DNA of 64,000 nt from an uncultured delta proteobacterium (GCA_963767925.1 CAVYGB010000006.1:256001-320000); one strand, 5' to 3'. Positions 4,032 through 32,728 are shown, counted from the first letter of the stretch. Numbers and translations are program-made. The notes: generated from the sequence alone by a model not told the origin.

Positions 4032-4049
4032 TTTGCCCTCTCCTCCTGT

Positions 4050-5030: not shown

Positions 5031-5033
5031 GAC

Positions 5034-7471: not shown

Positions 7472-7534
7472 GTCTTTCCCCACTGTTTCTCCGAGGAGTC
7501 TCGCCGCAGCCCTCTCCTCCGCCTGAGTCAGGAA

Positions 7535-7690
7535 GGCAGGCTGCCGCCACATCGAGCGACCGCGCGAGTGCCGCTGACATCGCAGCACCGATTCGCCGAG
7601 AGGCTCGCGGCGGCCTCGCTGACGTCCAGTCGCTTCGGAGACAATGGCAGAGGGGAAAGAAGCGAGCACGTCTGCATTTTCGATACGCGG
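7535..7690 (-). promoter_or_regulatory. Conserved leader copy A with ops-like element (7535-7549)
   Basis: Blocks 7666-7690, 7605-7618, 7568-7578, 7535-7549 match 32641-32665 (23/25), 32596-32609 (12/14), 32545-32555 (11/11), 32504-32518 (15/15). Confidence 0.8.
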
Positions 7691-7721
7691 TTTACCGAAG
7701 CGCCCGAGCGCAAGCCCGACC

Positions 7722-8456
7722 TCACAGGCTGAGGGCGGGCGGCTCCAACTCGGTTGCGGCCGCCCCGGACGTCGCTCCGGCGAGCTGACCGTCGAACAGT
7801 TGCACGTTGCGCGTCGCCAGGCGGGCGTAGTCCGGGTTGTGCGTCACCATGCAGATGGTGGAGCCCGAGACGTGGAGCTCCCGCAGCAGATCCATGACCG
7901 CGTCGCCGTTCTTCGAGTCGAGGTTTCCGGTGGGCTCGTCGGCGAGGAGGACGAGCGGGTCGCCCGCCACCGCTCGTGCCACCGCGACCCGCTGCTGCTG
8001 TCCACCGGAGAGCTGACCAGGCATGTGCCGGCCCCGGTGGGTCATGGCCACCCGATCGAGGGCCATATGTACGCGCTCGCGCCGCTCCGCTGCCGGCAGC
8101 CCCCGGTAGGTGAGCGGCAGCTCGACGTTCTCGAAGACGGTCAGATCGCCGAGGAGATTGAAGGACTGGAAGATGAAGCCCAGGTGGCGGTTGCGGATGA
8201 GGGCCCGCCGCCGTGGGCGCAGATCGTTGACCCGGTCCCCACCCAGGTGGTAGGTGCCGGCGCTGGGCGTATCGAGGAGACCCAGGATCGAAAGCAAGGT
8301 CGTCTTCCCGGAGCCGGAGGGACCCTCGATCGACACGAACTCTCCCCGGGTGATACGCATATCGATGCCTTGGAGCGCGTACGTCTCCATCTCCGCCGTC
8401 GAGAAGACCTTCTCCACGCCCGCGAGCTCGATGAGCACTTCTTGTGACCCACTCAT
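7722..8456 (-). CDS. ABC transporter ATP-binding protein (LolD/MacB-type), no adjacent permease
   Basis: [47 protein letters not shown]. Confidence 0.95.
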
Positions 8457-8513
8457 GGACTCTCCTTACGATGTGGCCGAAGTAGGAATCCTCGCGATGG
8501 CCAGCCTCGAGGA

Positions 8514-8530
8514 AGCGAGCTTCGTGCCAG
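8514..8530 (-). promoter_or_regulatory. Putative sigma54 (-24/-12) promoter for the ABC ATPase gene
   Basis: Minus strand CTGGCACGAAGCTCGCT versus consensus TGGCACG-N4-TTGCW; GG-N10-GC spacing exact; ~58 nt upstream of ATG 8456. Confidence 0.6.
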
Positions 8531-8569
8531 CCCTGGTACCGCGCGGGATTGGGGTCAGCCGGGCTGCTT

Positions 8570-8606
8570 TGACCGGTTCTGGGACTTCGCGTCCCAGAAC
8601 CGGTCA
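8570..8606 (-). terminator. Perfect 16-bp stem-loop directly after the PKS stop (terminator-like, no U-tract)
   Basis: tgaccggttctgggac-ttcgc-gtcccagaaccggtca. Confidence 0.6.
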
Positions 8607-8616
8607 GCGGGGGCGC

Positions 8617-11600
8617 TCAACCCCCGGTCCGGGCCGCGGCGGCCAGAACCGGAGACAGCTCTGTCGTCTCGTCAGCCCCGGCCAGCGACGCGAGACTGCT
8701 GGCCAGGGCGGCTACGGTCTGGTGCTGGAAGAGCTCCTGGGCGGTCAGTCCGTAACCCATCTCGTTGAGCTGGGACACGATCTGGATGGCCTGGATGGAG
8801 TCGCCCCCGAGATCGAAGAAGTTGTCATTCAGACCGACGTCTTCGACCCCCAGCACGCGCTGCCAGACCTCGATCAGCTTCTGCTCGAGCTCACCGACCG
8901 AAGCGACGATCGGCGGGGCCGAAACGGCCTGCCCCGCCTCCGGGGAGGGTGCGGTCGCCTGGGCGGCGGCAACGGCCACCTGTCGTTCCGACGGGCGCTC
9001 CAGGGCCAGGCGCAAGGAGGCGTGCAGGTCGCGCGCCGAGACCACGACCTGAGGATGACCTTTCAGGAAGGCGAGCCGGCGGAAGGCCTCCGCCCCCTCG
9101 GCCGGGCTGATCCCCTGGGCGAGCTGATCGGCGTAGACCCGGTCGAGGGTCTTCTTCATCGGGCGTCGGGCGGCGGTGTCTTCCCAGCGGCCATACTGGC
9201 GATTGGCGAACGCGCGCACCTGCCCCGTGACGTCGTTGATCCGCTTCTGGGCGAAGGCCTCGATGTCCACCAGCTCGTCGCCCTCGCCGTTCATGAACAC
9301 CACGTCGAAGGTGATGGTCTGACCGGTCGGGTCGACCTCCTCCCGGAACCTCACGTGGACGAAGATCTTCCGCGTGAGCGGGCGGTGGAGCGTCAGTCGG
9401 CGGTAGCCCATCGGCAGGTAGATCCCGCTTCTGATCAGGAACTCCTTGCCTGTCCCGGTCGCCCGATCGAGCAGCGAGGGATGCAGCTTCATCGTGGCGA
9501 GCTCGGCGTTGAACATCTCCGGCAACTCGAGGATCGCCAGGTGCTCGTTCTTTCCCACGTGGGCCTCGCGCAGCGCCTGCCAGCGCGGTCCGAGATCCTC
9601 GTCGCGAGACGAATCGTCGGTGATGACCACGTGCCGGTCGGAGCAGCGGCGCATGAGAGCCTTCAGATCGTGGCGTCGCGGCGCAGTGGCGGGCACGAGG
9701 CGGATCTTCCCGCTGGCATAGTCCTTCCACTCGCGCCCACCCTGCCCGTTGACGCCCTCCCCTTGACCCTCGCTGGCCTGGCTACTGACACGGAAGCTGA
9801 AGCCGCCGGGATCATCTCTCTTGATGGTGGTCCGGACCTCACGTTGCTCGTCGTCCCTCAGCCCGAGGGGCGCCAGGAAGAAGGCGTCCCGGATCTCCAG
9901 GGCGGCGCCGCCGGCATGGCGCTCGACGGCGGCGCGAGCCATCTCCAGGTAGGCCGTGCCCGGCATCACGGCGCTACCGACGATCCGGTGTTCGTCGAGC
10001 ACCCAGTGCGTGCGGGGGCTCACCCGGGTCAGATAGACCTCGGTCCCGTCCGGCCCCTGGCTGTAATGGTCGAGCAAGGGGTGGTCGGACGTCGTCGTCG
10101 TCCCGGGCAGAGACGCGTGTCGGGCCGCCTTGTCCGCGAGCATGCCAACGCCTTTCCAGGCGTCCCAGTTCAGCGAGAGGATCGGGTTCATCGAGTCCCG
10201 GGTGGACGCAGCGAAGACATCGAGGAACGCATTCGCCGCACAGTAGTCGGACTGCCCGAAGCCGCCGAGGATCGCGCTGCGCGATGAGCACGCCACGAAG
10301 AAGTCGAGCGGTGTGTCGCCCAGCAGCGAGGCGAGAAGCCTCGTGCCGGTAACCTTGGGCGCCAGCACGGCCCGTATCGCCTCGCGCGTCTTGAGCTGGA
10401 TCATGCCCCCCCCGGCCACTCCGGCCGCGTGGATCACCCCGTGGATCTCGCCGAACCTCTCCCGGGCTCGGTCGAGCGCGCCGCTCAGCGAGGAGGCATC
10501 GCTCACGTCTGCGCTGAGGACGAGCACTTCCGCGCCCTTCGCCTCCAGCTCGCGCAGCCCCCGGATGCGCGTTGAGGTAACGTCTCCCTCCGGGTGGCCG
10601 TCGAGCCAGGACTGCCAGGTCTCGGGCGAAGGTAGCTCGGACCGACCGATCAGCACGAGCTTGACCGGTCCGGATTCAACCAGGCAACCTGCCAGGGTGA
10701 GCCCGATTCCCCCGAGCCCGCCGCTGATCAGGTAGACCCCGCCCGGCCGGACCCGGAACGAATCGGTCGAAGGCGATGCCAGGGAGGTGTAGGTCGGCTG
10801 CCAGCGATGACGGCCGTAGAGCGCGACTCTCTGCTGCGTGCCGTGCTCGCACTCGGTGACGAGCTGCTCGACCCTGCCTCCCGTCCAGGGTCGGCCCACC
10901 TCGAGGTCGAGGTCGATGTGGCGGCAGGTGAGGGTCGGATACTCCTGGGGGATGACCTGGCAGGCGCCAAACAGGGTAGCGCGCTCGGGCCCAAGCACCC
11001 GATTGCCGATGACGTCGTGGAGCTGGTTTGTCACGAACACGAGGTCGGTGGTCGTGGAATCGGGCAGACGACCGAGCGCCTGGGCCAGGTAGATGGCCGA
11101 CAGCAGGCTCGCGCCCGTCTCTCGCTCGGCCTCACCCTCGGCGGCGACATTGCCGAGGTGAAGAATCCGCGAGGGCCAGCGCCCCTCGGCGCGAAGACCG
11201 TTGAGCAGCCGCTCGTAGCCCTCCGGTCCGGAGGGGTGCAGGGCCAGCTCGCCGTCGACTCGCATCACCTCGATCCCGCGCCGGCTCAGCTCGGCGCCGA
11301 CCGCGTCGGCCAGCCCGTGCGCGTCGGCGAGCAGCAACCAGGGCCCCCGGTCGCTGGCCGTCCTGGACGTCACGAGTGGGCTTCGCTGCCAGGTCGGGAC
11401 ATAGAACCATTGATCGAGATCCGGGCGCTTCTCCAGGGTCTCGAGGGCGGTGTCGGTGGCCGAGGTGGACCCCGGGTCGACCCAGCAACGCTGCCGTTCG
11501 AAAGGATAGCCGGGCAACGTCACGCGCGAGCGCGCTTCGTGCCGGTGAAACCCGCTCCACTCGATGCTCCCTCCCACCATCCACAGCCGACCGAGGGTGG

Positions 11601-14130
11601 TGAGCAGGAAGGCCTCATCGGAGGTAGCCTCGCTGGGGTGTCGCAGGGTGCTCAGGACCACCTGCGCCGCTGCGCGGGCCGGATGGAGGCGGGCGAACGT
11701 GCTGAGGCTGCGCCCGGGGCCGACCTCCAGGAGGACCGAATCGGCCTGGCGGACCAGCTCGGCGAGGCCATCGGCGAACCGGACGGTGTGCCGCAGGTGG
11801 CGTACCCAGTACCCGGGGTCCGTGGCCTCGGCGGCGGTGATCCAGGTCCCGGTGAGGTTGGACAGGTAGGGGCGCTGAGGGGCGTGAAAGCGGGCTCCCG
11901 CGCAGATCTCCCCGAACTCGGCAAGGATCGGGTCGAGCATATGCGAGTGAAAAGCGTGTGAGGTGTGCAGGCGCCGAACCGCCACGCCTCCGGCTCCGAG
12001 CTCACGCTCCAGGCCTTCGATGGCCAGGAGGGGCCCGGACAGCACGCATGATTCGGGGCCATTCACGGCTGCCAGCGAGAGCTGCTTGGACGCCGCCAGC
12101 TCGCGGCAAGCGGCCTCTGTCTGGGGCACCACCAGCATGCCGCCCGGCGGAGCCTTCTGCACGACCCGGCCGCGCAGAGCTACGAGGCGGAGCGCGTCTT
12201 CCAGCGAGAAGACGCCGGCCAGGCAGGCGGCCACGTATTCGCCGATGCTGTGGCCGATCATCGCGCTCGGCTCCAGCCCCCACTCGCGGCACAGCGCCGC
12301 CAGGGCGTATTCGATCACGAACAGCGCGGGTTGAGCCAGCTCGGTCTGGCGCAGCCGCGCGCTGGCCCGGGCCTCATCGACGCCTGCCGCGGGGAAGATC
12401 ACCTCGAGGAGATCGACCCCCAGGATCGGCCGAAGTTGCCGGGTGCAGGCCTCGACCTCACGTCGAAACGTCGGTTCGTGCCGGTACAGATCGAGGCCCA
12501 TGCCGATGTACTGGGCCCCCTGGCCGGGGAACATGAACACGAGGTCCCGTTGCCGGGGCTCGTGAAACCCAGTCCGGCCCAGCGTCGGATCCAGGCTGCG
12601 AAGAGCGCGGCTCGCCTCGTCGCGATCCCGGCAGACGACCATGCGCCGGTGGGGCAGCTGCGCGCGCCCGACCTGGAGGGTGTAGGCGACGTCCGGCAGC
12701 TCCAGGGACTGATCCTGGTCCAGCCGCTCCGCCAGACGGCGCGTGCTCTCCTCGAGAGCCGAGCTCGTCCCGGCCGAGAGAAGGAGCAGTTGCTGGGGGC
12801 GGCTGGCCGACCCCGCCGGGCTGGGCGGGGCTTCCTCGAGCACGAGGTGGGCGTTGGTGCCACCGATCCCGAACGAGCTGACACCAGCACGCAGCGGCCG
12901 GGGACCCTGCCACTCCTTCAGGCTGTCGTTGACCCGGAAAGGGCCTGCCGCGAACGGGATCTCGGGGTTGGCCCGAGAGAAGTGCAAGCTGGGCGGCACC
13001 TGCCGGTGTTGCAGGGCGAGCACGGTCTTGATCAAGCTCGCGACACCGGCAGCCGCGTCGAGGTGCCCCAGGTTGCTCTTCACCGAACCGACGAGACAAG
13101 CGCCGGGGGCGGCGTTTCGGAAGGCTTCATTGAGGGCGGCGATCTCTATCGGATCGCCCATCCGTGTCCCCGTCCCGTGGGCTTCGAGGAAACTGATCGA
13201 GGCGGGATCGACGCCGGAGACGGCGTGCGCCTCGCAGACGACGCGGGCCTGTCCCTCGACGCTGGGCGCGGTGTAGCCGACCTTGCCCGACCCGTCGTTG
13301 CCGATGGCCGAGCCCCGGATGACCGCGTAGATCCGATCGCGATCGGCGAGGGCGTCGGCCAGGCGCTTGAGGACCACAACTCCCGCGCCGTTGCCGCTCA
13401 CCGTGCCCTGGGCCTCGGCGTCGAATGGCCGGCAGTGGCCATCGGGCGACATGATGCCGCCTTCCTCCGCCAGGTATCCGCTGCGCTGAGGTACCGTGAC
13501 CGACGCTCCCCCGGCCATCGCCAGATCACATTCGTGCTGCAAGAGGCTCTGGCAGGCCAGGTGGACCGCGACAAGCGACGTGGAGCAAGCGGTCTGCACC
13601 GTCACCGCCGGCCCCTTGAGGTTCAGGCGGTAGGCCACGTTGGTGGCGACGTGGTCGCCCCGGTTGCGGATCGAGGTCTGCAAGAACCCGCTCGCCTCCA
13701 CGACCTTGCGGTTGCTCAGCAGGTTGTTGAGGAGGTAGTGGTTGAAGCCGACGCCTCCGAAGACGCCGACCGTCTGCTTGCACCTGGCCGGGTCGTATCC
13801 GGCGTTCTCGAGGGCCTCCCAGGCACACTCCAGGAACAGGCGCTGCTGGGGATCGGTGAGCTCCGCCTCCCGGCGGGAGTAGCCGAAGAAGGCGGGGTCG
13901 AAGCCCTCCACGTCCTCCACGATCCCCCGTCGCCGCACGTAGCGGGGGTCGCGCGCCGCGCGCGTCTCCCCCTCTGGCAGCTCCAGTTCCTCGGGGGCGA
14001 AGGTCGCGATGCACTCCACGCCGTCGCGCAGGTTGCGCCAGAAAGTCTCCAGGTCCGGAGACCCGGGGAACCGTCCCGACATGCCGACGACGGCCACCCT
14101 CGGAAGCGAGTCGTCCGGAGCGTTACTCAT
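8617..14130 (-). CDS. Type I PKS module KS-AT(malonyl)-KR with nested DH-carrier protein
   Basis: Start reassigned to MSNAPDD (14130). KS: QTACSTS, EAHGTGT, KSNLGHLD. AT: GHSIGE, HAFHS. KR: GGLGGIG, APK, GQSDYCAAN. DH: HRIVGSAVMP, HPSLLD. Carrier: FFDLGGDSIQA. Confidence 0.95.
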   Translation of the reverse strand: MSNAPDDSLPRVAVVGMSGRFPGSPDLETFWRNLRDGVECIATFAPEELELPEGETRAARDPRYVRRRGIVEDVEGFDPAFFGYSRREAELTDPQQRLFLECAWEALENAGYDPARCKQTVGVFGGVGFNHYLLNNLLSNRKVVEASGFLQTSIRNRGDHVATNVAYRLNLKGPAVTVQTACSTSLVAVHLACQSLLQHECDLAMAGGASVTVPQRSGYLAEEGGIMSPDGHCRPFDAEAQGTVSGNGAGVVVLKRLADALADRDRIYAVIRGSAIGNDGSGKVGYTAPSVEGQARVVCEAHAVSGVDPASISFLEAHGTGTRMGDPIEIAALNEAFRNAAPGACLVGSVKSNLGHLDAAAGVASLIKTVLALQHRQVPPSLHFSRANPEIPFAAGPFRVNDSLKEWQGPRPLRAGVSSFGIGGTNAHLVLEEAPPSPAGSASRPQQLLLLSAGTSSALEESTRRLAERLDQDQSLELPDVAYTLQVGRAQLPHRRMVVCRDRDEASRALRSLDPTLGRTGFHEPRQRDLVFMFPGQGAQYIGMGLDLYRHEPTFRREVEACTRQLRPILGVDLLEVIFPAAGVDEARASARLRQTELAQPALFVIEYALAALCREWGLEPSAMIGHSIGEYVAACLAGVFSLEDALRLVALRGRVVQKAPPGGMLVVPQTEAACRELAASKQLSLAAVNGPESCVLSGPLLAIEGLERELGAGGVAVRRLHTSHAFHSHMLDPILAEFGEICAGARFHAPQRPYLSNLTGTWITAAEATDPGYWVRHLRHTVRFADGLAELVRQADSVLLEVGPGRSLSTFARLHPARAAAQVVLSTLRHPSEATSDEAFLLTTLGRLWMVGGSIEWSGFHRHEARSRVTLPGYPFERQRCWVDPGSTSATDTALETLEKRPDLDQWFYVPTWQRSPLVTSRTASDRGPWLLLADAHGLADAVGAELSRRGIEVMRVDGELALHPSGPEGYERLLNGLRAEGRWPSRILHLGNVAAEGEAERETGASLLSAIYLAQALGRLPDSTTTDLVFVTNQLHDVIGNRVLGPERATLFGACQVIPQEYPTLTCRHIDLDLEVGRPWTGGRVEQLVTECEHGTQQRVALYGRHRWQPTYTSLASPSTDSFRVRPGGVYLISGGLGGIGLTLAGCLVESGPVKLVLIGRSELPSPETWQSWLDGHPEGDVTSTRIRGLRELEAKGAEVLVLSADVSDASSLSGALDRARERFGEIHGVIHAAGVAGGGMIQLKTREAIRAVLAPKVTGTRLLASLLGDTPLDFFVACSSRSAILGGFGQSDYCAANAFLDVFAASTRDSMNPILSLNWDAWKGVGMLADKAARHASLPGTTTTSDHPLLDHYSQGPDGTEVYLTRVSPRTHWVLDEHRIVGSAVMPGTAYLEMARAAVERHAGGAALEIRDAFFLAPLGLRDDEQREVRTTIKRDDPGGFSFRVSSQASEGQGEGVNGQGGREWKDYASGKIRLVPATAPRRHDLKALMRRCSDRHVVITDDSSRDEDLGPRWQALREAHVGKNEHLAILELPEMFNAELATMKLHPSLLDRATGTGKEFLIRSGIYLPMGYRRLTLHRPLTRKIFVHVRFREEVDPTGQTITFDVVFMNGEGDELVDIEAFAQKRINDVTGQVRAFANRQYGRWEDTAARRPMKKTLDRVYADQLAQGISPAEGAEAFRRLAFLKGHPQVVVSARDLHASLRLALERPSERQVAVAAAQATAPSPEAGQAVSAPPIVASVGELEQKLIEVWQRVLGVEDVGLNDNFFDLGGDSIQAIQIVSQLNEMGYGLTAQELFQHQTVAALASSLASLAGADETTELSPVLAAAARTGG

Positions 14131-17100
14131 GATCTTCTTCCCTGCCTTTCCTGTTGCGTGCAGATCTGGCTGCGGCGATGCGCTGGTGCGCCCGGCTGGA
14201 GGCGGCCAGGGCCGGCGCCGCGGTGGCCTCCCTTCCGTCCAGGTAGCGGGCCAGCGCCGAGATTGTCGGATTGCGGAACAGCTCCACCATGGGGACATCG
14301 CGGCCGAGCGCCGCCCGGAGCCGGGCGTGAACCTTCACCATGCGAAGCGAATGCCCACCCACGTCGAAGAAGTTCTCCTCGAACCCCACCGTCGGCAGGT
14401 CCAGCACCTCCCGCCAGATCGCCGCGACGGTCTGCTGGGTCGGGGTGCCGCCGGGCTCGCCACCCTCGCCCTGCCCGGGGTGCGGATCGGCGGCGGGCAG
14501 CGTCGCCACATCGAGCTTGCCGTTCGTCGTGAGGGGGAACCGTTCCAGCACCACGAAGGCGCCGGGGACCATGTAGTCCGGGAGCCTCAGGCGGAGGTGG
14601 GCCCGCAGCCGCTCCCTGTTGATCTTGATGCCTGGCCTGGGCACGACGTACGCCACCAGCAGTGCCTCTCCGCTGTCGCGACCGCCTGCCCCGCCGCGCA
14701 CCAGCGCGAGCGCGTCGCGGACCTCGGGCGACCCGCGCAGCGCCGAGGCGATCTCGTCGAGCTCGATCCGGTTGCCGCGAAGCTTGACCTGATTGTCGAG
14801 CCGGCCAAGATAGCGGAGGGCGCCGCTGGCCAGTCGACAGGCGCGGTCTCCGGTCCGGTACATGCGGCTTCCCGGCACGGTCGAGAAGGGATCGACCAGG
14901 AAACGTTCCGCGCTCAGGCCGGGCTGGCCGCGGTAGCCACGGGCCACCCCTGCCCCTCCGATGAAGACTTCACCGGGGGCGCCGAGCGGCTGGGGCGAGA
15001 GGGACCCGTCCAGCACGTAGGTTTGGCAGCCTTCGATGTCGACTCCGATGTTCGACAGCGGGCCGGCCACGCGGGCCGCTGTCGCATCCACCGTGCATTC
15101 GGTCGGGCCGTAGACGTTGAAGAAGGTGGTGGCGTTCCAGCCAGCGAGGGTCGTCCACAGCTCATCGTCGATCGACTCCCCTCCCACCAGCACCGCCCGC
15201 AGACCACGTTCGGTCGAGCGGGTCCAGGCCTCGCAGTCGACGAGGGCCTTGAGCTGGGAGGGCGTGCAATCGAGGACGTCGAGCCGGCGCTCGCGGGCAA
15301 ACCGCCAGAGCGCCTCGGGATCGAGGCGAGCCTCCTCGGGGACCACGTGCAGGGTGTGGCCATCGAGGACCTGGATCCATTGCTTGACCGAAGCGTCGAA
15401 GACGGTGGGGGCGTTCAGGCTCACCTGGCAGGGTCCACCCAGAGGGGCGTACACAAGCCCCCGCAGGGCCTGCAGGAGGTTGACCACCGAGCGATGGCTC
15501 ACCTCCACCCCCTTGGGAGCGCCGCTCGAGCCCGAGGTGTAGATGACGTATGCCAGGTTGTCCGCCGAGCTTCGCGTATCGCAGTTGCTCTCGACGGACG
15601 AGAGGACGTCATCAGGCCCGTCGAGGCAGACCGTGACCAGGCCCGCGAGGGCCGATGATGCCGCCAGGGAGGTCTCGGTCAACACAACCCGGGCTCCCGT
15701 GTCCGCCAGGATGCCGCGCACGCGCCCGGAGGGATGGGCCGGAGAGAGCGGAACGTAGGCCCCTCCAGCCTTGAGCACGCCCAGGATCGCCGCAAGCACC
15801 TGGCTCGATCGGTCGAGAAAGAGCCCGACCGGGGTCTCGGGGCCCACGCCCATCGCGACCAGCGTGTGCGCGATGCGGTTGGCCCAGGCGTTGAGCTGAG
15901 CGAAGCTGAACGAGCGGCGGTGACACGAGGCCGCTGTCCGCGAGGGGGTTCGGGCCGCCTGGATCTCGAACAGCCGATGGAGCGTCGGCACGGGAGACGT
16001 CCGGACCGAAGGGGTCGATCCCGGATCCGCCGCCGGCAGCGGCGTCGCCGCCTGCTGGGGACCCGCCCCGAGGGCCGACGCCATCGCGTCGACGAGCGCG
16101 TGGATATAGGGCTCCTCCGCCGTGCAGGACTGGTAGCTGGCCCGGATCACGAGCTGCTCGGGACAGACCAGGCAGCACAGCTCCAGCCGGGCCGGGCCAG
16201 GATCGATGTAGAGGTCCTCCAGGGAGAAGGTGACGCCGCCCTGCTTTCGCGGTGACGGCCGCTCCAGGTAGCGAAACCCGACCCGCAGCTCGCTGCAGGC
16301 CTGCTCCGGATCGCGGTCGGGCCGAAAATACGGCAGCATCTGGCCGGCTTGCGCCAGGTCCTCCTGCACGTGCGCGGCCCGGCGGGACCGGTCCAGATCA
16401 CGCTCCCCCGAGATCAGCGGCACGGTGGTGGCGAGCGCGCCACAGAGCGCGTCCAGGGCTCCGTCGAACCGTCCCGGGAGGGTGACCCAGGTGGCAACCC
16501 CTGCGCCCTCGGAGAAGCGGAACAGGACCTCCTGCCAGGCCGCCAGCAACCAGGCCTCGACCGAGACACCAGCCTGGCTGGCCCTGTCGCGCAGCCCTTG
16601 CAGAGCGTGAGCGCCGACTCGCCGGTGGAACGTTCCGCCCGGCAAGGAAGGTTGCCCGCTGCTGCCACGGCCCTCGAAGGCGAACTTGACCGCCTGGCTG
16701 CCGGCCCGCTCGCTCCGCTCTTGCCAGTAGCGCCGCCCGGCCTCGCCCTCCTCGGCCACGATCAGGCCTTCTTGCCAGTCGAAGAGCTGGAGCTGCTGCA
16801 ACTCCGCCTCGCCTGGCGAGAACTCCCCGCCAGCACCGACCAACTGGCCGTATGCCGCCGTCATCTCGGCGAACACGATCTTCATGGTCTCGAGGTCGGC
16901 ACAGAGCGCCGGCAGGGTGAGCACGAGGACGTGTCGGCCGGGCCCCCCGGAGATGGAGCGGGCCCGGACGGCCGCGCCCGCCCCGGCTGTCGCCGCCTGA
17001 CGGCGTTCTTCCCGGGCCAGCTCCTCGGGATTCAGCGAGCAAGCGGGCGGCGTCTCGTCCCAGATCGGGGCGGCCAGCGGGGCCACGGTCTGCAGGGGGA

Positions 17101-17329
17101 ACCGCAAGCCAGCCACCGGGTGAAAGCTGGTCCGCAAGGCCGTGTGTCGGGCCATGACGAGCGCGAGGGCAGACCGGAGGGCGTCGGGATCCACCGGGCC
17201 TTCCAGGGAGACGACGGCCTGAGCCAGCGGCGCTTGCCCTGACTCGGTCGCAGCCCACAGGCGCCGCTGCTGCGCCGACAGGGGAAATCCGGCGAGAGGC
17301 CGGGACGGCGCGGCCCCGGGTGTGCTCAC
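14123..17329 (-). CDS. NRPS: Interface (non-canonical C) domain-A(Glu, code DAKDLGVVDK)-T
   Basis: C-like N-terminus with LPALCAD in place of HHxxxD; A motifs FDASVKQ, DCTPS, LVGGE, NVYGPTECTVD; PCP FFDVGGHSL. Confidence 0.9.
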   Translation of the reverse strand: MSTPGAAPSRPLAGFPLSAQQRRLWAATESGQAPLAQAVVSLEGPVDPDALRSALALVMARHTALRTSFHPVAGLRFPLQTVAPLAAPIWDETPPACSLNPEELAREERRQAATAGAGAAVRARSISGGPGRHVLVLTLPALCADLETMKIVFAEMTAAYGQLVGAGGEFSPGEAELQQLQLFDWQEGLIVAEEGEAGRRYWQERSERAGSQAVKFAFEGRGSSGQPSLPGGTFHRRVGAHALQGLRDRASQAGVSVEAWLLAAWQEVLFRFSEGAGVATWVTLPGRFDGALDALCGALATTVPLISGERDLDRSRRAAHVQEDLAQAGQMLPYFRPDRDPEQACSELRVGFRYLERPSPRKQGGVTFSLEDLYIDPGPARLELCCLVCPEQLVIRASYQSCTAEEPYIHALVDAMASALGAGPQQAATPLPAADPGSTPSVRTSPVPTLHRLFEIQAARTPSRTAASCHRRSFSFAQLNAWANRIAHTLVAMGVGPETPVGLFLDRSSQVLAAILGVLKAGGAYVPLSPAHPSGRVRGILADTGARVVLTETSLAASSALAGLVTVCLDGPDDVLSSVESNCDTRSSADNLAYVIYTSGSSGAPKGVEVSHRSVVNLLQALRGLVYAPLGGPCQVSLNAPTVFDASVKQWIQVLDGHTLHVVPEEARLDPEALWRFARERRLDVLDCTPSQLKALVDCEAWTRSTERGLRAVLVGGESIDDELWTTLAGWNATTFFNVYGPTECTVDATAARVAGPLSNIGVDIEGCQTYVLDGSLSPQPLGAPGEVFIGGAGVARGYRGQPGLSAERFLVDPFSTVPGSRMYRTGDRACRLASGALRYLGRLDNQVKLRGNRIELDEIASALRGSPEVRDALALVRGGAGGRDSGEALLVAYVVPRPGIKINRERLRAHLRLRLPDYMVPGAFVVLERFPLTTNGKLDVATLPAADPHPGQGEGGEPGGTPTQQTVAAIWREVLDLPTVGFEENFFDVGGHSLRMVKVHARLRAALGRDVPMVELFRNPTISALARYLDGREATAAPALAASSRAHQRIAAARSARNRKGREEDHE

Positions 17330-25900: not shown

Positions 25901-28181
25901 GCCGATGGGCGTCCTCTTCGAGGGTCCGGGCCAGCTCCACCTCGCTCAGCGCCTCGACGGGAAGGAAACGCACGACCCGGGGGTCGTTGCGCCGAAGCAC
26001 CCTGACCGCCTCCCCGCGGGCGACGGGGAAGCTGCTGCGCAAGGCAGGATGGCGCTCGAGCAGCAGCTCCAGGGCCCTCCGCAGGCGATCGCGATCGAGC
26101 ACACCTCGCAGGCGCACGACCCGCGCGATGTTGTTGCTCGCTCCTTCCGGATCGAGTTGCTGCAGGAACCACAGGGCTCGCTGGCCGTGCGAGAGCCCGC
26201 CACCGCCCGAAGAACTGGGCGGCGGGCGCCCCGCGCCGATCCGCCGGGCGGTGTCGGCCAGGCTCAAGCGTTCGAACAGCAGCGAGGGCTCGATCGCCAG
26301 GCCAAACTGCTTCTCGAGCCCGTGGGCGATCTCGATGGCCGCCAGGGAGTCGAGGCCGTAAGCCGTGATGGGCTGCTGGGGGTCCACCGACGCCGGCGGC
26401 AGACCCGCTCGCCGAGCCACCTCCGCCCGCAGCCAGGCGCCGACGGCGTCCTGGTCCCCCGGCGAGGGGGTGGCAGTCGAACGGCCAACGACCGAGAGCG
26501 TCCCGTCGAGGAAGGCTCGCCGGCACTGACTCCGCTGGATCTTTCCACTCGAGGTCTTCGGGATCGACCCCTTGCGGATGAGCACGACCTCGTGGGCCGC
26601 CAGCTCGTGGCTCGCGGCCAGGGCCTGCCGGATCGCGGCCTCGATCTCGTTGCCGTCGACCCCGCTCCCTCGGTCCACCTCCGCCACCACGACCAGCCGT
26701 TCCTCCCGCTCGATCTCGACTGACACCGCCGCCACGCAGCCCGGTCGCAACAGGGGATGGCTCCGCTCGACGCTGACCTCGATGTCCTGCGGGTAGTGGT
26801 TCTGGCCACGCAAGACGAGGAGATCTTTGCAGCGGCCCGTGATGACGAGCGATCCGTCTTCGAGGAAGCCGAGGTCGCCGGTCCGCAGGAAGGGGCCCCT
26901 GCCGCTCCCCGAGAGAAAGGACTGAAAGGTGAGGGCCGACTCCTCTGGCCGGTTCCAGTAGCCGACGGCCACGCTGCCCCCCTTCACCCAGATCTCGCCC
27001 ACCTCACCCGGGCCACGCTCCGACCCGGTCTCCGGATCGACGATGACCACCTCCTGCTCGCCGAGAGGTCGCCCACAGCCCACGAGGCTGGCGGCGTCCG
27101 CCGCCGCCTCTCGCCGCACCAGCCGGTGCTCCCCGAGCGCGTGCTTGTCGACGTGCAGGACGAGCGGGGATCGGGCTTTGTGGCTCCCCGTGACCATGAG
27201 GGTGGCCTCGGCCAGGCCGTAGCAGGGGTAGAAGGCCTCGGCGCGAAAGCCACAATCGGCGAAGACCTCGGCAAAACGGGTCAGGGTGTGCGCGCGCACC
27301 GGCTCGGCCCCGTTGAAGGCGACCGTCCAGCTCGACAGATCGAGCCCCGCCCGCTCGGCCGGGGAGATCTTCTCCAGGCAGAGCTCGTAGGCGAAGTTGG
27401 GCCCGCCGCTGGTGGTGGCCCGATAGCGGGAGATAGCCTGCAACCAGCGGAGGGGCCGCTTGAGGAAGGCGGAGGGCGCGATCTGGACACAGGGGATGCC
27501 AGCAAAGAGCGGCTGCAGCAGACCGGCCATGAAGCCCATGTCGTGGAAGGTGGGCAGCCAGGACACGTAGCTGTCGCCCGCGCCATGCTCCACCGCCGCG
27601 TGGACCAGGGCCGCGTTGTGCAAGAGGTTGGCGTGGGTGAGCATCACCCCTTTCGGGGTGCCGGTTGAGCCCGAGGTGTACTGCAGGAAGGCTACTTCGT
27701 CCGGCGGCCCGCCCGGCAGGCGCTCCTGGGCCTCGGGCACGACATCGGTGGCGATCCAGGTGAAGCGTCCAAGATCGAGCCCCTGCTCCATGAACCCCGC
27801 CTGGATCCGCTCGACCAGCGCGGCGGTGGTGAGCACGCAGGTGGGCTGGGCGTCGGCCATGATCGCGACGAGGCGGCTCAGCGTGCGGGTGCTGGTAGGC
27901 GGATAGGCGGGCACGGCGATGACTCTGGCGTGCAGGCAGCCGAAGAAGCCGACCAGGAAGTCGAGCCCCGCAGGGTAGAGCAACACCGCGCGGGCGCCGG
28001 GGTTTGCCCGATCTCGCAAAGCTGCCGCCACCGAGAGGGCGCGGCGGCGCAGCAGGGCGTAGTCGAGGCTCATCTCCTCGCGATCGCCGTCGGGCAAGAA
28101 GGTGAAGGCCTCCCCGACCGGGGACGTCTCGGCCCGGAGATCGAGCAGGTCGGTCAGGGTATCTGGCTGAGATGAACGCAT
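22968..28181 (-). CDS. Lipo-initiation NRPS: FAAL-ACP-C-A(Ala-type, code DLFNNALTYK)-T
   Basis: Start reassigned to MRSSQPD (28181, purine-rich SD). FAAL: LQYTSGSTG, SWLPTFHDMG, NGAEPV, CYGLAEATL. ACP YGLDSL; C HHIVADLWS; A FDLSIFE, NLAGE, GPTETTTYST; PCP LGAHSL. Confidence 0.95.
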   Translation of the reverse strand: MRSSQPDTLTDLLDLRAETSPVGEAFTFLPDGDREEMSLDYALLRRRALSVAAALRDRANPGARAVLLYPAGLDFLVGFFGCLHARVIAVPAYPPTSTRTLSRLVAIMADAQPTCVLTTAALVERIQAGFMEQGLDLGRFTWIATDVVPEAQERLPGGPPDEVAFLQYTSGSTGTPKGVMLTHANLLHNAALVHAAVEHGAGDSYVSWLPTFHDMGFMAGLLQPLFAGIPCVQIAPSAFLKRPLRWLQAISRYRATTSGGPNFAYELCLEKISPAERAGLDLSSWTVAFNGAEPVRAHTLTRFAEVFADCGFRAEAFYPCYGLAEATLMVTGSHKARSPLVLHVDKHALGEHRLVRREAAADAASLVGCGRPLGEQEVVIVDPETGSERGPGEVGEIWVKGGSVAVGYWNRPEESALTFQSFLSGSGRGPFLRTGDLGFLEDGSLVITGRCKDLLVLRGQNHYPQDIEVSVERSHPLLRPGCVAAVSVEIEREERLVVVAEVDRGSGVDGNEIEAAIRQALAASHELAAHEVVLIRKGSIPKTSSGKIQRSQCRRAFLDGTLSVVGRSTATPSPGDQDAVGAWLRAEVARRAGLPPASVDPQQPITAYGLDSLAAIEIAHGLEKQFGLAIEPSLLFERLSLADTARRIGAGRPPPSSSGGGGLSHGQRALWFLQQLDPEGASNNIARVVRLRGVLDRDRLRRALELLLERHPALRSSFPVARGEAVRVLRRNDPRVVRFLPVEALSEVELARTLEEDAHRPIDLAEGPLLQVTHYRRSEEEHLLLFVIHHIVADLWSLVLLLRELGTIYTALGLNLRLDVEAARDGYAEFVAWQEDLLAGSEGDRLATYWKGELGQEWPQLDLPLDNPRSREEAAAGASLDFIVDLEVRERLQEVATKNGATLFMVTAAAWLALLHRLTGQARFVVGTPSSGRPRAEFADVIGYFVNMLPLGVDFAGVTTFNELLGQVRARVLSGMEHAAYPFPLMVKASQLSRGASNRAPIQASFTFHKAQQAERDGWGMARLALGMGGAKLQVGELALESVALPERTAQFDLSLALGEVEEGLGGRLRYRSDLLAPETVAGWAECLQVLLRSIAEDPHRPILDLPILSEAARATILSFQAPAARPPACVCLHHRFERQARETPERPALLDGRESISYRELDRRANRLARQLRALGVGPEERVGICLSRSGRMVEAMLAVWKAGAAYLPLDPDYPEERLRFMASDAAALAIITEPRWTGRFDGGASRVITLDAEGLVGVAPGESEEAAESSVGPANVAYLIYTSGSTGVPKGVMIEHRQADAFVQWATGAFGPAELERVLASTSACFDLSIFELWAPLCSGGAVVLAENLLQWWEGQREGGSVEAVRLINTVPSAMAAVASAGWLPPDLRAINLAGEPLDATLVEGLYRAGSSELRVNNLYGPTETTTYSTWTTLRRGEPVTIGVGLGATTLRVLDPGQQLVPVGVAGELYIGGPGVSRGYWRRPGLTAASYVPDPLAQEPGERVYRTGDRVRWRRDGRLEFLGREDDQVKIRGFRIELREVSSVLAAHPAVGESVAVLAGGAADRRLVAYVALRPDQSVSPQDLQSHLRARLPRHMEPARIVVLERLPRTPNGKVDRAALPAPTGELDTRRPARNATEAEVGRIWADALGIAAVGPDEDLFTLGAHSLLMVTVRARLEARFGVDLPLRQLFDSPTVAAVAEAIEASAGQAAPLGSIRRLTRGDGDVRRLLRESKP

Positions 28182-28990
28182 CGCTCTTCTTCCTCGGGGC
28201 GGGCGCCACGTTGACTGCCGATGGCCGCGCGCAACTCGGCCGCTACCAACGCCAGCAGCTCGGTCCGACTCGTGTTGACGAAGAAATGGCCACCGGGCAA
28301 AAGGTGCAGACGGAAGGCACCGTTGCCGTGTTCCCGCCACGCCTCGAGCTCGGGGGGGTCGATCCCCCCGTCCGAGAGCCCGCCAAAGGCGGTGATGGGG
28401 CAGCTCAAGGGGGCCTCCTCGAGATAGGCGTAGCGCTCGACCGCCTGGAGGTCTGCTCGTAGCAGCGGCGTCATCACCTCCATGAGCGCGGCGTTCTGCA
28501 GCACCTCGGCCGGCGTGCCCTGCATGCTCGCCAGGGCAGCGACAAAGTCCGCCTCGGGGAGCAGGTGAAGCTCCGGGCGCCGGCGGGGCCGGTGCGGCGC
28601 CCGGTGGCCCGACACCATGACCTGGACCGGTGCTTTCCCTTCCTCACGCCGCCAGCGCCTGGCCAGTTCGAAGGCGACGATCGCCCCCATGCTGTGGCCA
28701 AAGAAGGCGACTGGCCCCGACAGGAACGGTCGCAATCCAACCCACAGATCGTCGATCAAGGCTCCGATGTCCCGGTGAGCCGGCTCGCGAAGGCGCGCAC
28801 CCCGCCCGGCCAGCTCGACGGCCAGGACGTCGACGCCCGCCGATAGCCCGGCGGACCAGGCTCGAAACAGGTGGGCCATGCCCCCGGCGTGAGGAAAGCA
28901 GAAGAGCCGCAGGCGTCCGGCAGGCGCGGTCGCCATCGGATCGATCCTCGTCTGGGGCAGATATCGGGAGAAGAACCGGGGGAGGGTCAT
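28154..28990 (-). CDS. Type II (editing) thioesterase
   Basis: LFCFPHAGG, FGHSMG, LLRADL, PGGHFF. Confidence 0.95.
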   Translation of the reverse strand: MTLPRFFSRYLPQTRIDPMATAPAGRLRLFCFPHAGGMAHLFRAWSAGLSAGVDVLAVELAGRGARLREPAHRDIGALIDDLWVGLRPFLSGPVAFFGHSMGAIVAFELARRWRREEGKAPVQVMVSGHRAPHRPRRRPELHLLPEADFVAALASMQGTPAEVLQNAALMEVMTPLLRADLQAVERYAYLEEAPLSCPITAFGGLSDGGIDPPELEAWREHGNGAFRLHLLPGGHFFVNTSRTELLALVAAELRAAIGSQRGARPEEEERCVHLSQIP

Positions 28991-29038
28991 GGGTGCACCA
29001 TCAGGGAGGTCAAGGCGATGGGCCGGAGGGCGACCTGG

Positions 29039-30766
29039 TCAGACGCTGTTGAGGGCGGGGGCCCGCACCAGCTCGTCCCACTCGACGCGTCCGCGTTCCA
29101 GCTTGATCACCCGATCCGCGACGTCGAAGTAGCGATCGTCGTGGGTGATCACGAGGACGGTCTTGTTTCGGTCGCGAAGCTCGGGGAGCAACTTGTGGTA
29201 AAAAACCTGGCGGAAGCTGGGATCCTGGTCCGCGGCCCACTCGTCGAACACGTAGATCGGACGATCCTCGAGGGTGGCCAGCACGAGGGCCAGCCGCTTG
29301 CGCTGGCCCTGTGACACCTCGAGGGTAGAGAAGCGGCGGTTGACGAGCTTCACCTTTTCCCCGAGCTGCAAACGATCGAGCTGGGCCCGGCCATCGACCT
29401 CGAGTCGCTCCTCGACTGGACCCACCAGCCGGTTGAACAGATGGTAGTCGGCGAAGATGCCGGAGAAGTGCTGACGGTACTCATCACGGTTGGCGCTCGT
29501 GACCGGGACACCGTCGAGGCGGATCTCCCCCGCGTGAGGCTCGTAGAGGCCGGTCAGGAGCTTGGCGAGGGTGGTCTTTCCGCTGCCGTTGCCGCCGACG
29601 ATGAACACCATCTGTCCAGCGTAGAAGCTCAGGTCCAGCGGGCCGACGGCGAAGCTCTCGCTGCTGGGCTCACTCTGATAGACGTGTCGGACACCGAGGA
29701 GCTGAAGCTGACGCCAGGGACGCGGCGATCGGGCTCGGGCGGACGGCTCCAGGGGCGAGCTCGTCAGCGACAGACCCAGGGCACGTACCTTCTCTGCCGC
29801 CACGAACGCCCGGCTGAAGCTGGGCAGGTTGTTGAGGATGATGGTGAGCGGCGTGATCATGAACAAGATGGTCAGGGCGTAGCCGGTTATGGATGCTCGA
29901 TCGATGGCCAGGACCGCGGGGGAGGCGAAGAGGATTAACCCGATGAAGAGGAAGAAAAGGATCTGCCCCCAATTGCCCGCGGCCAGGGCGTAGGTGTTGG
30001 CCAGGACCGCCCTTCGCCGGATGGCCTCGACGGGCGGCTCCAGCTCCTCTTGCAAGAACAGCCGGCGGCGCTCTCGGTTGAGCTTGAGCTCCTTGGCCCC
30101 CTCGGTCAGGCCACGAAAGGCCGCAAACATCCGATCCCACTCCTCGCGCAGTCGCCGGAAGTGGCCGAGCGACTTCCGCGCCGGGACGGCGTGGGTGAGG
30201 ATGCCGAAGGCCATGAAGGCGAGCACCGCCAGCAGCAGAGGGCGAGACAACCAGCCCAGGTAGGCGAGACAGCCGGCCATGATCCCGAGCTGCATGAGCA
30301 CCACGGGCAGGGCGGTTATCGCCGACGTGACGCTTCCGATGTCGTCGGTGAAGGTGGCCAGTAGCCGGGCCGCCCCGATGTCCTCGAGCAAGCGATACGG
30401 CGCGTCCAGGACCTGTCGAGCCATCCGCAACCGGAGCTCCTTGGCCGCCCGCGAGGTCAGCCGGACCAGCAGGACTTGCGAGCCGAACCCGGCCAGGGGA
30501 ACGAGCAGGCAGAGGACGGCGAACATCCCGGCCAGCGGGTGATGGCGCGAGCTGTCCAGGCCGGCCCCCAGGACGGCGTTGATCACGGCCACCAGCGCCG
30601 TGCTGCCCAGCCCCGCGAGGAGCCCGCTCAGGGTGGCCAGGATCACCGTGAGACGGGCGAACCGGGTCCCCTGCGACCAGCGCAACAGCACCGAGATGAG
30701 GCGACCTAGGCTTTGCAAGGACGACTCCTTGTTCGCGCTGGACGAACGTTCCACAGCATGTTCCAA
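29039..30766 (-). CDS. Cyclic peptide export ABC transporter (SyrD/PvdE/YojI family)
   Basis: Fused TM domain and NBD; GGNGSGKT, SQGQRKRLAL, FDEWAADQDP, ITHDDRYF. Confidence 0.95.
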   Translation of the reverse strand: MEHAVERSSSANKESSLQSLGRLISVLLRWSQGTRFARLTVILATLSGLLAGLGSTALVAVINAVLGAGLDSSRHHPLAGMFAVLCLLVPLAGFGSQVLLVRLTSRAAKELRLRMARQVLDAPYRLLEDIGAARLLATFTDDIGSVTSAITALPVVLMQLGIMAGCLAYLGWLSRPLLLAVLAFMAFGILTHAVPARKSLGHFRRLREEWDRMFAAFRGLTEGAKELKLNRERRRLFLQEELEPPVEAIRRRAVLANTYALAAGNWGQILFFLFIGLILFASPAVLAIDRASITGYALTILFMITPLTIILNNLPSFSRAFVAAEKVRALGLSLTSSPLEPSARARSPRPWRQLQLLGVRHVYQSEPSSESFAVGPLDLSFYAGQMVFIVGGNGSGKTTLAKLLTGLYEPHAGEIRLDGVPVTSANRDEYRQHFSGIFADYHLFNRLVGPVEERLEVDGRAQLDRLQLGEKVKLVNRRFSTLEVSQGQRKRLALVLATLEDRPIYVFDEWAADQDPSFRQVFYHKLLPELRDRNKTVLVITHDDRYFDVADRVIKLERGRVEWDELVRAPALNSV

Positions 30767-30779
30767 GCGACGGCCATCC

Positions 30780-31025
30780 TCAGCGGTCGAGGCCTGTCTT
30801 CTCCTCGACGAGCTGGCGGCGCACGCTGAGCGGCCGCATGTCGGTCCAGGTCTCTTCGATGAAGGCCAGGCACTCGGATCTCGTTCCCGTCTTGCCAGCG
30901 GGTCGCCAGCCCAGGGGCAGCGGCCGGGCGGCCGGCCAGATCGAATATTGCTCTTCCAGGTTCATCACGGCCTGGTAGGGGGTCGTTTCGTCGTCAGGCT
31001 GGCTCATCGTGCTCTCGTCCTTCAT
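30780..31025 (-). CDS. mbtH: MbtH-like protein
   Basis: [10 protein letters not shown]...PLGW...[16 protein letters not shown]. Confidence 0.97.
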
Positions 31026-32425
31026 TGGCTGGCGCGCAGCTCCCGGCTGGCTCGGATGGCTCCCCTCCGGACGGCGACGATGGTCTGCTTCTCGTCGGCG
31101 AGGACGGAGGCGATCACGTCGCGGAAACGCTGGATCAGCCGGCTGACCGTCGCTGCCTCGAAGACCCGGCTGTCGTAAACCGAGCGAAGCAGCAACCTCG
31201 GCCCGGGCTCGATGACCAGCATCAGCGGATAGCTGTTCCGCTCGATCGAGCTGGCGGCGACGATGCGGGGCGACCCCATGCTGGCCAGGGCCGCGTTCAC
31301 TGGATAGTTCTGGAAGACGACCACGCTGGAAAAAAGCGGCGTGCCCCGGGGAACCTCGCTGCTCTGCTGGATGTCCGGCAGCGACATGTATTCGTAGCGA
31401 CGGGCCTCGGCCTGCTGGACTTGCAGCTCCTGCAGCCAGGGCACCACCGGGGCATCCATCTCGATGCGCGCGCGAACCGGCAAGTTGTTGATGAACAGGC
31501 CCACCATGCTCTCCATCCCAGGCAGCTCCACGGGGCGTCCGGCGACGACATTCCCGAAGACGACGTCATCGACTCCGCTCTGCTGGGCCAGATGGAGGGC
31601 CCAGGCACCGAGAATCACTGTATGAGTGGTCACCCGGTGCTTGCGCGCGAAGGCCTTCAGCGCGGCCGTCTCGCCCTCCTGCAGCGATACCTCCTGCTGG
31701 CGGTACACGTCCTCGGTAGGGGTGGCCGGGACAACCTGGTCCTCTCCGATGGAGGTCGGCGCGACGAACCCCTGCAGCGTCTTGCGCCAGTACTCACGAC
31801 CCCGCACCCGGTCCTGACGTTCGAGCCAGTCGATGTACCGTCTGAACGGCAGGGGCTGCTTGAGCCGGAGCGCCTGGCCCCGGGCCAACGCCCCGTAGAT
31901 GGCGATGACCTCGGCGAGGACGACCGCCACCGACCAGCCGTCGAGCAGGGTGAGGTGGTAACGCCAGATGAACTGGTAACGGTCGGGCCCGCACTTGATG
32001 AAGGTGGCCTCGACCAGAGGCGGACTCGAGAGATCGAAGTCCCGGTGTCGCCCTCGCTGCAGCAGCTCCTCGAGCCGCTGTTCCTGATCGGCCCGGCTGA
32101 GGTCCGACCAGTCATATTCCTGCCAGGGGAGCGCCACCCTCCGTAGCACCATCTGCCGCGGTTTGCCCTGCTCATCGGTCACGAAGCCGGTGCGCAGGAT
32201 CTGGTGCCGGCCGATCACCTGCTCGAAGGACTGTCGAAACGCGGAGGCGTCGACTTCTCCCTCCAGGGCGTAGCTCTGCTGGTTGATATAGGCCCCGGAA
32301 TTGGGGGCATTGAGACTGTAGAACAGCATCCCTTCTTGCAAGGGAGTGACGACGTAAACGTCCTCGATCCGTTCGTCAACCAGCGGCTGCGGCTTGAGCA
32401 GGGCTGGTTTCGAGTTGAGTCTCAT
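31022..32425 (-). CDS. Stand-alone condensation domain (DCL-like) with atypical active site HLTLLDG
   Basis: Start reassigned to MRLNSK (32425). [67 protein letters not shown]. No A or T domain. Confidence 0.9.
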
Positions 32426-32503
32426 GTTGCAGGTCGTTCCTTGGCTGGTTGGGGACGTTCGGGATCGCGCAAGCTTGGAGATGGGGCGGCGGCGCCGTCT
32501 CCG

Positions 32504-32665
32504 GGCAGGCTGCCGCCAGGACCGCCTCATCCCCTTCCTCGCGCGTGCCGCTGACCCGAGCTGCCCGCGCGTTGCGAGCTGGCCGGTGAAGTCCGTCGCG
32601 GCAGCTTCGTCCCGAGATTTGCCACGGCGACGATCGCGCCGCACGTCTGCATTTTCGGTACGTGG
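32504..32665 (-). promoter_or_regulatory. Conserved leader copy B at the cluster head with ops-like element (32504-32518)
   Basis: Homologous to 7535-7690 in four collinear blocks; minus strand GGCGGCAGCCTG versus enterobacterial ops GGCGGTAGnnTG. Confidence 0.8.
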
Positions 32666-32728
32666 GGCAGAGGAAGGGCGCCGGCGGCGATTTGACTCGC
32701 GCCCGTGGTCGGGGGAAGACTCCCGCCC

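Follow-up and report, generated by a model that had tools for sequence, protein, structure and literature searches.

A candidate ops-type loading site in two leaders of a nonribosomal peptide synthetase/polyketide synthase cluster that encodes its own NusG paralogue

Background

How do NusG paralogues that are embedded in the operons of antibiotic clusters find their targets? To our knowledge, recruitment sites have been described only for RfaH, LoaP and UpxY. The question is raised by a 64,000-nucleotide (nt) stretch of DNA recorded under an uncultured delta proteobacterium (GCA_963767925.1, CAVYGB010000006.1:256001-320000; hereafter the window), in which a cluster of nonribosomal peptide synthetase (NRPS) and polyketide synthase (PKS) genes includes a gene for a NusG paralogue. 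The leader of this gene (leader A) and that of the first gene of the cluster (leader B) share four blocks of sequence. An earlier note on the window had proposed that the last of these, block 4, is a variant of ops, the element at which RfaH is recruited in Escherichia coli, and that it loads the paralogue on both transcription units, including its own. The leaders were compared with each other, with the genome and with the leaders of related paralogues, and on this evidence we consider it probable on balance, if not strongly so, that block 4 is an ops-type loading site, altered in one loop base, for the NusG paralogue that the cluster itself encodes.

Results

Four collinear blocks are shared by the two leaders

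The two leaders were aligned as they read on the minus strand, the sense strand for every cluster gene. The four blocks were found where the earlier note had placed them, in the same order in both leaders (Table 1), and the identities between the copies were also as described, with 23/25 positions alike in block 1, 12/14 in block 2, 11/11 in block 3 and 15/15 in block 4. The distances from block 4 to the ATG are 64 and 79 by coordinate difference (63 and 78 intervening bases), the start codons lying at 7471 (leader A gene) and 32425 (leader B gene). Exact runs of 17, 15 and 11 nt are common to the two leaders. When leader B was shuffled 1000 times with its dinucleotides preserved, the longest common run had a mean of 8.0 nt and a maximum of at most 13 nt, and runs of at least 11 nt arose in 55 of the 1000. 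The spacers between the blocks are of near-random identity and differ by insertions and deletions (indels). The leaders are plainly homologous and lie in the same cluster, so that they might be the decaying remnant of a duplicated promoter-leader segment whose blocks have no present function, but neutral decay would not spare perfect runs of 17, 15 and 11 nt amid near-random, indel-bearing spacers, and we regard such an origin as very improbable.

Genome counts were made on both strands of the 9.34-Mb assembly (71% GC). The 17-mer core of block 1 and the 15-mer of block 4 each have two copies, both in leaders A and B; no further copy of the block 1 core was found in the genome at up to two mismatches, and no further exact copy of block 4. 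The block 2 pattern has four copies, the block 3 11-mer has 38, and the bare 12-mer GGCGGCAGCCTG contained in block 4 has 18. Block 1 is the longest and most A/T-rich of the boxes and is private to the cluster. Among 400 other genomes of the class it had no exact match, its matches at two mismatches were at the level of a reversed-pattern control, and its three one-mismatch matches had no ops-like or block 3 element downstream. From its sequence, block 1 is plausibly a promoter or operator, and blocks 2 and 3 could be auxiliary sites or RNA pairing partners. In leader A, the hexamer CGATGT stands 5' of block 3 and again 5' of block 4, in the manner of a short direct repeat.

Table 1. Leaders, shared blocks and genes of the cluster, with positions counted from the first nucleotide of the window
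Feature	Position	Strand	Sequence or content
Leader A	7472..7721	(-)	From the ABC ATPase gene stop to the NusG paralogue ATG
Block 1, copy A	7666..7690	(-)	CCGCGTATCGAAAATGCAGACGTGC; A/T-rich; possibly promoter or operator
Block 2, copy A	7605..7618	(-)	CGAGGCCGCCGCGA; includes GCCGC, complement of the GCGGC core in blocks 3 and 4
Block 3, copy A	7568..7578	(-)	GTCAGCGGCAC; GCGGCA in common with block 4
Block 4, copy A	7535..7549	(-)	TGGCGGCAGCCTGCC; ops-like 12-mer GGCGGCAGCCTG at 7537-7548
Leader B	32426..32704	(-)	From the first NRPS gene ATG to the divergent gluconolactonase-like gene
Block 1, copy B	32641..32665	(-)	CCACGTACCGAAAATGCAGACGTGC
Block 2, copy B	32596..32609	(-)	CGAAGCTGCCGCGA
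Block 3, copy B	32545..32555	(-)	GTCAGCGGCAC
Block 4, copy B	32504..32518	(-)	TGGCGGCAGCCTGCC; ops-like 12-mer GGCGGCAGCCTG at 32506-32517
Window-type element (block 4 type box)			Written GGCGGCAG
NusG paralogue	6920..7471	(-)	183 amino acids; first gene of the second operon; assigned to the TaA-like clade
Rest of second operon in window	2..6902	(-)	AsnB-like protein, TauD, Asp/Glu racemase, adenylation-carrier protein, condensation domain
First operon	7722..32425	(-)	Behind leader B; about 25 kb; by Pfam: free-standing condensation domain (31022-32425), ABC exporter, thioesterase, three NRPS genes (one with a TauD domain), KS-AT-KR-DH-carrier PKS module, ABC ATPase (7722-8456)

Block 4 matches ops at nine of ten defined positions

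Ten positions of ops are defined, and the 12-mer GGCGGCAGCCTG agrees with the E. coli element (GGCGGTAGnnTG) at 9 of them when the sense (non-template) strand of either leader is read, the one mismatch being a C for the T at position 6 (T6). The G at -10, the pyrimidine (here T) at -1 and the G at +1 of the pause consensus are all present in it, and the GCG..AGC stem is kept. Matches at nine or more of the ten positions make up 791 of the 18.67 million genomic 12-mers (4.2e-5), and about 0.001-0.002 such matches would be expected by chance inside the conserved blocks, over 21-57 positions.

Canonical ops stands at a similar distance in most leaders of related paralogues

A metagenome scan gave at least 80 loci (L008-L087), with paralogues 37-46% identical to that of the window among the matches listed, and the counts that follow refer to these 80. 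Within the 500 nt before the gene, exact GGCGGTAGnnTG was present at -260 to -20 on the gene's strand in 33/80 loci and exact GGCGGTAG in 49, against a background of 25 copies of GGCGGTAG on both strands in the remaining ~1.26 Mb of the same loci; at one or two mismatches the element was found in 57. It lies about 10-120 nt before the start codon in most loci and up to 212 nt in the others, a distance similar to that in the window. The consensus of these relatives is A-G-TCC...TGGGACTCTnAT-GGCGGTAGCTTG.

A hairpin ends a few bases 5' of ops in the relatives. An ungapped consensus RNA fold of their box recovers the invariant ops mini-stem only, the 5' arm being unaligned, and hairpins were thus scored sequence by sequence over 53 sites. 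Stems of at least 6 bp occurred in 29/53 sites, compared with 14% of shuffles, and the arms co-vary (GAGAGTC/GACTCTC in some, GAAAGTC/GACTTTC in others). A sigma-54 promoter was considered for the same box, and the hairpin reading was preferred because 11/53 sites read TGTGAC, which breaks the invariant GG. The presence of canonical ops with a hairpin in most leaders of this large clade, which is sister to that of the window paralogue (see below), suggests that ops-type loading is common well outside the enterobacteria. Viewed over the genes, the arrangement in 57 of the 80 paralogues is a hairpin followed by GGCGGTAGC(T/C)TG, often with a TGCAA-type box about 20 nt farther upstream of the hairpin.

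Within the class itself, paralogues were found in 15 of 400 genomes. One of these (in genome G220), 38% identical to the window paralogue and the one that offered a comparison, has in its leader CCGAAGGG-GGCGG-AGCCTGCC-TTG. Its element, GGCGGAGCCTGCC (L113, G220:C2:285120-285132), is the ops core minus the loop T, which leaves a one-base loop as in Bacteroides opsX; its flank AGCCTGCC(TT) is the same as in leader A; and its sole other copy in that genome is inside an open reading frame (ORF). A promoter-like stretch, TTGAAC...TAGGTT, lies about 40 nt upstream of the element in this leader.

Nine of the 15 same-class paralogues (L091, L093, L095-L097, L099, L100, L104 and L105) follow a FabA/FabZ-like dehydratase gene with almost no gap and no leader, a context unlike that of the window and unlike that of the hairpin-ops loci; the dehydratase call is based on a common upstream coding sequence, with Pfam applied to L091 alone. 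At 1e-25 the paralogue had no match in 400 genomes sampled from the phylum, and a search of plasmids for the paralogue found nothing. In a scan of a genome collection with the single protein, two distant alphaproteobacterial loci were among the matches listed.

The cluster encodes the genome's only specialised NusG paralogue

Exactly two NusG-family genes are present in the genome, the housekeeping gene (contig C8) and the in-cluster paralogue behind the block 4 copy of leader A (site A). The paralogue matches PF02357 at 2.4e-13, and its KOW match is below the Pfam cut-off. An AlphaFold2 model built from a 17-sequence alignment (mean predicted local distance difference test 84.6, predicted template modelling score 0.76) has an NGN domain and a beta-barrel KOW domain, with beta strands throughout residues 110-166. 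The best matches of the model in the PDB are NusG and RfaH chains, and the structure that it matches best over the full length is that of Thermotoga maritima NusG in the closed form (2lq8). With NGN and KOW domains and a housekeeping NusG encoded elsewhere in the genome, the protein is a specialised paralogue within the NusG/Spt5 superfamily. RfaH-like autoinhibition is not indicated by the model, a predicted structure by itself being compatible with a switch between alpha and beta folds.

The nearest named homologue, at 58% identity, is a 'NusG-like protein' of Myxococcus xanthus DK1622, which we take to be TaA itself, and unnamed metagenome proteins are 57-65% identical. In a FastTree tree of 99 sequences rooted on housekeeping NusG, read without regard to branch support, the paralogue and the M. 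xanthus protein fall in one TaA-like clade, which is sister to a large clade of soil-metagenome paralogues. Its closeness to the Myxococcus protein and its place in a PKS/NRPS cluster thus assign the paralogue, by sequence, to the TaA-like clade.

Evidence weighing against an ops-type site

Several observations count against block 4 as a loading site. The pattern GGCGG[CT]AGnnTG occurs 103 times in the genome, 95 times with C, where about 100 copies are expected from base composition. The bare 12-mer, being at chance frequency, is therefore not specific by itself. A working site would have to draw further specificity from the T and CC that flank it, perhaps with help from the other blocks; the full 15-mer, possibly together with blocks 2 and 3, is probably required. 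The earlier note had held that a motif scattered over the genome independently of NusG-paralogue operons would speak against its proposal. Such scatter is seen, in a weak form, for the 12-mer. As to the identification of block 4 as an ops variant, canonical GGCGGTAG at a similar distance in the relatives' leaders and the same-class variant with the AGCCTGCC flank argue for it, and the chance frequency of the bare 12-mer argues against it.

In a distant and possibly imprecise alignment, one of the five RfaH residues that contact ops, which we take to be K10, H20, R23, Q24 and R73, is identical in the window paralogue (R, Q, R, H and N against K, H, R, Q and R). At the same five positions, the sister clade with canonical ops has mostly R, H/Q, G, K and P. 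Since the contact residues differ between clades, they give no guide to site recognition. K10 and R73 are named for RfaH in a passage of PMC7593976.

The changed base is, according to part of PMC7819879, the very T that E. coli RfaH reads, and across the sister clade T6 is almost without exception. The upstream hairpin of the relatives is absent, there being no stem in leader A and a chance-level 5 bp stem in leader B, and the 20 nt upstream of the block 4 site are not conserved between the two leaders. Within the TaA clade, the two loci compared at the DNA level were L009 and L010. No ops or block-4-type element was found in the leader of L009, whose paralogue is the most similar among the metagenome matches listed (46% identity, 71% GC), or at the gene of L010, which lacks a leader. 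The L009 leader has, some 150 nt before the paralogue gene, CGTCTGCAT, the reverse complement of the centre of window block 1, which may be chance. In L010, an MbtH-like gene (L010:327-560) is followed 23 nt downstream by the TaA-clade paralogue, which is thus also NRPS-associated.

The remaining two points against an ops-type site, a perfect 11-nt palindrome in block 4 (GGCAG-C-CTGCC), equally apt for a dimeric DNA-binding protein, and the position of the transcription start, which has been placed upstream of block 4 by inference, lead to a different account of the leaders. The four blocks could be an ordinary promoter and operator layout, common to the two operons and co-regulating them, served by a sigma factor or DNA-binding regulator encoded elsewhere, with block 4 as the palindromic operator and its likeness to ops a GC-rich coincidence. 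Besides the palindrome, the chance frequency of the ops-like 12-mer genome-wide and the uncertain start, the A/T-rich, promoter-core-like character of block 1 in a genome of 71% GC would suit this arrangement. Against it, the NusG paralogue was the sole regulator gene found among the cluster genes scanned, and the lack of any further genome copy of the block 1 core or of exact block 4 would be unusual for the site of a host regulator. Neither leader matches the sigma-70 consensus or, at up to two mismatches, the sigma-54 consensus (TGGCAC-N5-TTGC), and the account leaves unexplained why ops stands at the same place in the relatives of the paralogue. We therefore regard an ordinary promoter and operator layout as unlikely, though deserving of attention. 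A sigma-54 promoter at block 4 in particular was considered and set aside, the spacing of its GG and GC being one base short of the required 10.

The blocks might instead act as RNA, either as a leader structure bound by the paralogue, in the manner of LoaP, or by another factor, or as a riboregulator in which GCCGC of block 2 pairs alternatively with GCGGC of blocks 3 and 4. Block 2 is indeed complementary to the common core of blocks 3 and 4, a pairing of blocks 2 and 3 occurs in the minimum-energy folds of leader B, and LoaP is reported to require an RNA hairpin (in part of PMC12691694). The predicted pairings are, however, unlike between leaders A and B, and folding was no better than that of shuffles (z was -1.57 and -0.43 when each leader was folded whole and lay between -0.64 and +0.59 when sub-regions were folded). 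Two copies with invariant blocks yield no covariation, and a search of leader A and six relatives' loci, with leader B outside it, found no relevant Rfam family and only a sub-threshold microRNA match. Terminator-like sites were absent from both leaders and in the cluster were not above shuffles (5 vs 6.2 and 2 vs 5.5). On these grounds, we hold an RNA element to be distinctly improbable.

Gene layout and origin of the cluster

Pfam scans confirmed the NRPS/PKS gene content described in the earlier note (Table 1). Beyond the left edge of the window, the second operon goes on with a further adenylation-carrier protein and then a permease of the MacB type, which makes the unit at least 12 kb long. 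Leader A starts 32 nt past the ABC ATPase gene, and it could either have its own promoter or be an internal reloading site on one very long transcript. A MacB-type ABC transporter is split over the two operons, with the ATPase (7722-8456) last in the first operon and the FtsX/MacB permease (L106:15259-17667, left of the window) far down the second. One mismatch from the sigma-54 consensus is TGGCACGAAGCTCGCT (window 8514-8529, minus strand), which falls in the 160 nt that separate the PKS gene from the gene for the ABC ATPase; window-wide, matches of this kind are at chance level (18 vs 19.9 expected).

The GC content at third codon positions is 0.75-0.86 in the cluster and 0.85-0.98 (mostly at least 0.93) in the listed ORFs of the right flank. 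Per 2 kb, GC content is 0.64-0.71 on the cluster side (window 1-32700) and mostly 0.72-0.75 in 32700-64000. In 71 other same-family genomes, the single same-genus genome among them, no copy of the paralogue was found. The lower third-position GC content and the failure to find the paralogue in same-family genomes suggest that the cluster is probably of foreign origin and was acquired horizontally. Foreign operons are the kind of target ascribed to specialised NusG paralogues in a section of PMC7819879. The DNA is present in soil-metagenome runs.

The earlier note had written of related Myxococcota clusters and of myxobacterial NusG paralogues. A look-up with ribosomal protein L11 points instead, weakly, to the Acidobacteriota, the phylum being known for 4-6 members per matched cluster, and the host, represented by a metagenome-assembled genome from soil, is probably acidobacterial rather than myxobacterial.

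Discussion

A proposed loading circuit and its significance

The arrangement of the two leaders and of the genes behind them fits loading of the paralogue on both transcription units, including the factor's own. What was observed are the sequences, their restriction to these leaders within the genome, the arrangement of the genes and the association of ops with relatives of the paralogue, and from these we infer a sequence of pausing, binding and read-through. RNA polymerase would start upstream of block 4, perhaps at block 1 or close to it, and would pause after about 120-140 nt at the T-G step of GGCGGCAGCCTG, where the non-template strand would form a small GCG..AGC hairpin with a GC loop instead of the GT loop of E. 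coli ops. The NGN domain of the paralogue would bind the paused complex, displace the housekeeping NusG and remain on the polymerase, and the paralogue would thereby take the polymerase across about 25 kb and at least 12 kb of DNA gained by horizontal transfer. Because site A stands ahead of the paralogue gene, the first of its operon, the circuit would act upon itself by positive feedback.

Extended beyond the window, this proposal would mean that TaA-type paralogues of NRPS/PKS clusters use private, re-tuned versions of ops, with a GCG-GC-AGC non-template hairpin in a 15-mer that is helped by upstream boxes repeating the GCGGC core or its complement. We offer this generalisation tentatively, as possible if rather doubtful.

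What is new at this locus is an ops variant with a changed loop and no hairpin, duplicated on two operons of one cluster and accompanied by three extra conserved boxes. The window thereby offers a definite candidate of 15 nt, open to mutation and present twice, beside the one specialised factor of the genome, and with it a candidate switch for clusters of the antibiotic type. If the generalisation to TaA-type paralogues is right, it would give the TaA clade its first defined recruitment element, and the cluster would carry its own elongation code, consisting of one factor and two loading sites. A foreign cluster of 37-40 kb could then be expressed in a new host after horizontal transfer, with both operons switched on via positive feedback, and the pairing of factor and site would be a portable handle by which long silent NRPS/PKS clusters of uncultured soil bacteria could be driven.

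Relation to characterised NusG paralogues

The nearest named homologue is presumably TaA of the M. xanthus myxovirescin (TA) cluster. The window paralogue falls in the same tree clade, shares 58% identity with the DK1622 NusG-like protein and is likewise encoded amid polyketide/peptide genes; unlike TaA, it belongs to a host that is probably from the Acidobacteriota. The earlier note's remark that no defined cis-element is known for myxobacterial NusG paralogues agrees with the literature as far as excerpts of PMC7819879, PMC7593976 and PMC12691694 go, none of which gives a mechanism or recruitment site for TaA. In the excerpts of the two reviews, from 2020 and 2021 (PMC7819879, PMC7593976), the mechanism is called unknown, and the excerpt of the 2025 paper (PMC12691694) mentions no recruitment site for TaA.

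Bacillus LoaP is also a NusG paralogue dedicated to antibiotic (polyketide) operons. As described in part of PMC12691694, LoaP uses a leader RNA hairpin and reads through intrinsic terminators, whereas the window shows neither a hairpin that is stable and conserved nor terminator-like sites in excess. The hairpin-ops box of the soil-bacterial loci (L008-L087) belongs to the sister clade, takes the same position in the factor's own leader and has the core GGCGG.AGC(C/T)TG. It differs in combining T6 with an upstream co-varying hairpin, where the leaders in the window carry C6, lack the hairpin and add three conserved blocks.

With RfaH and ops of E. coli, the window system would share the pairing of a NusG paralogue with a 12-nt element, on the non-template strand, in leaders that precede long foreign operons. 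It differs at position 6, which is C in the window and T in ops, and the sequence similarity of the two proteins is weak (E = 0.006). The window factor is encoded inside its presumed target cluster, as the first gene of an operon, whereas RfaH has a monocistronic gene and works in trans on unlinked operons. The KOW domain of the window protein is modelled as a beta-barrel, whereas the C-terminal domain of RfaH is alpha-helical and autoinhibitory and refolds to a beta-barrel.

UpxY and opsX of Bacteroides fragilis offer a parallel in layout, the paralogue standing first in its operon behind its own loading site. According to the portions of PMC11685472 seen here, the GCG..AGC stems of opsX sites are kept while the loop base varies between paralogue-specific sites, and recognition reaches beyond the 12-mer, to about 40 bp. 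Unlike these systems, the window has no conserved region encoding a pause hairpin directly upstream of the site, and leader A has no stem ending within 6 nt of it. The second gene in the window operon is AsnB-like (asparagine-synthase-like), and there is no UpxZ-type inhibitor gene. The cargo is an NRPS/PKS cluster instead of a capsule operon, and one factor would serve two sites, whereas Bacteroides has many factor-site pairs.

The window system is a member of neither family. The helical C-terminal domain is not predicted for its factor, and the action in trans, T6, the pause-hairpin region and the UpxZ partner do not recur in it. As reconstructed from its sequence, it would nonetheless work most like RfaH/ops and UpxY/opsX, and since opsX sites vary in the same way (PMC11685472, in part), a change of the loop with the stems kept would be a known route of re-tuning.

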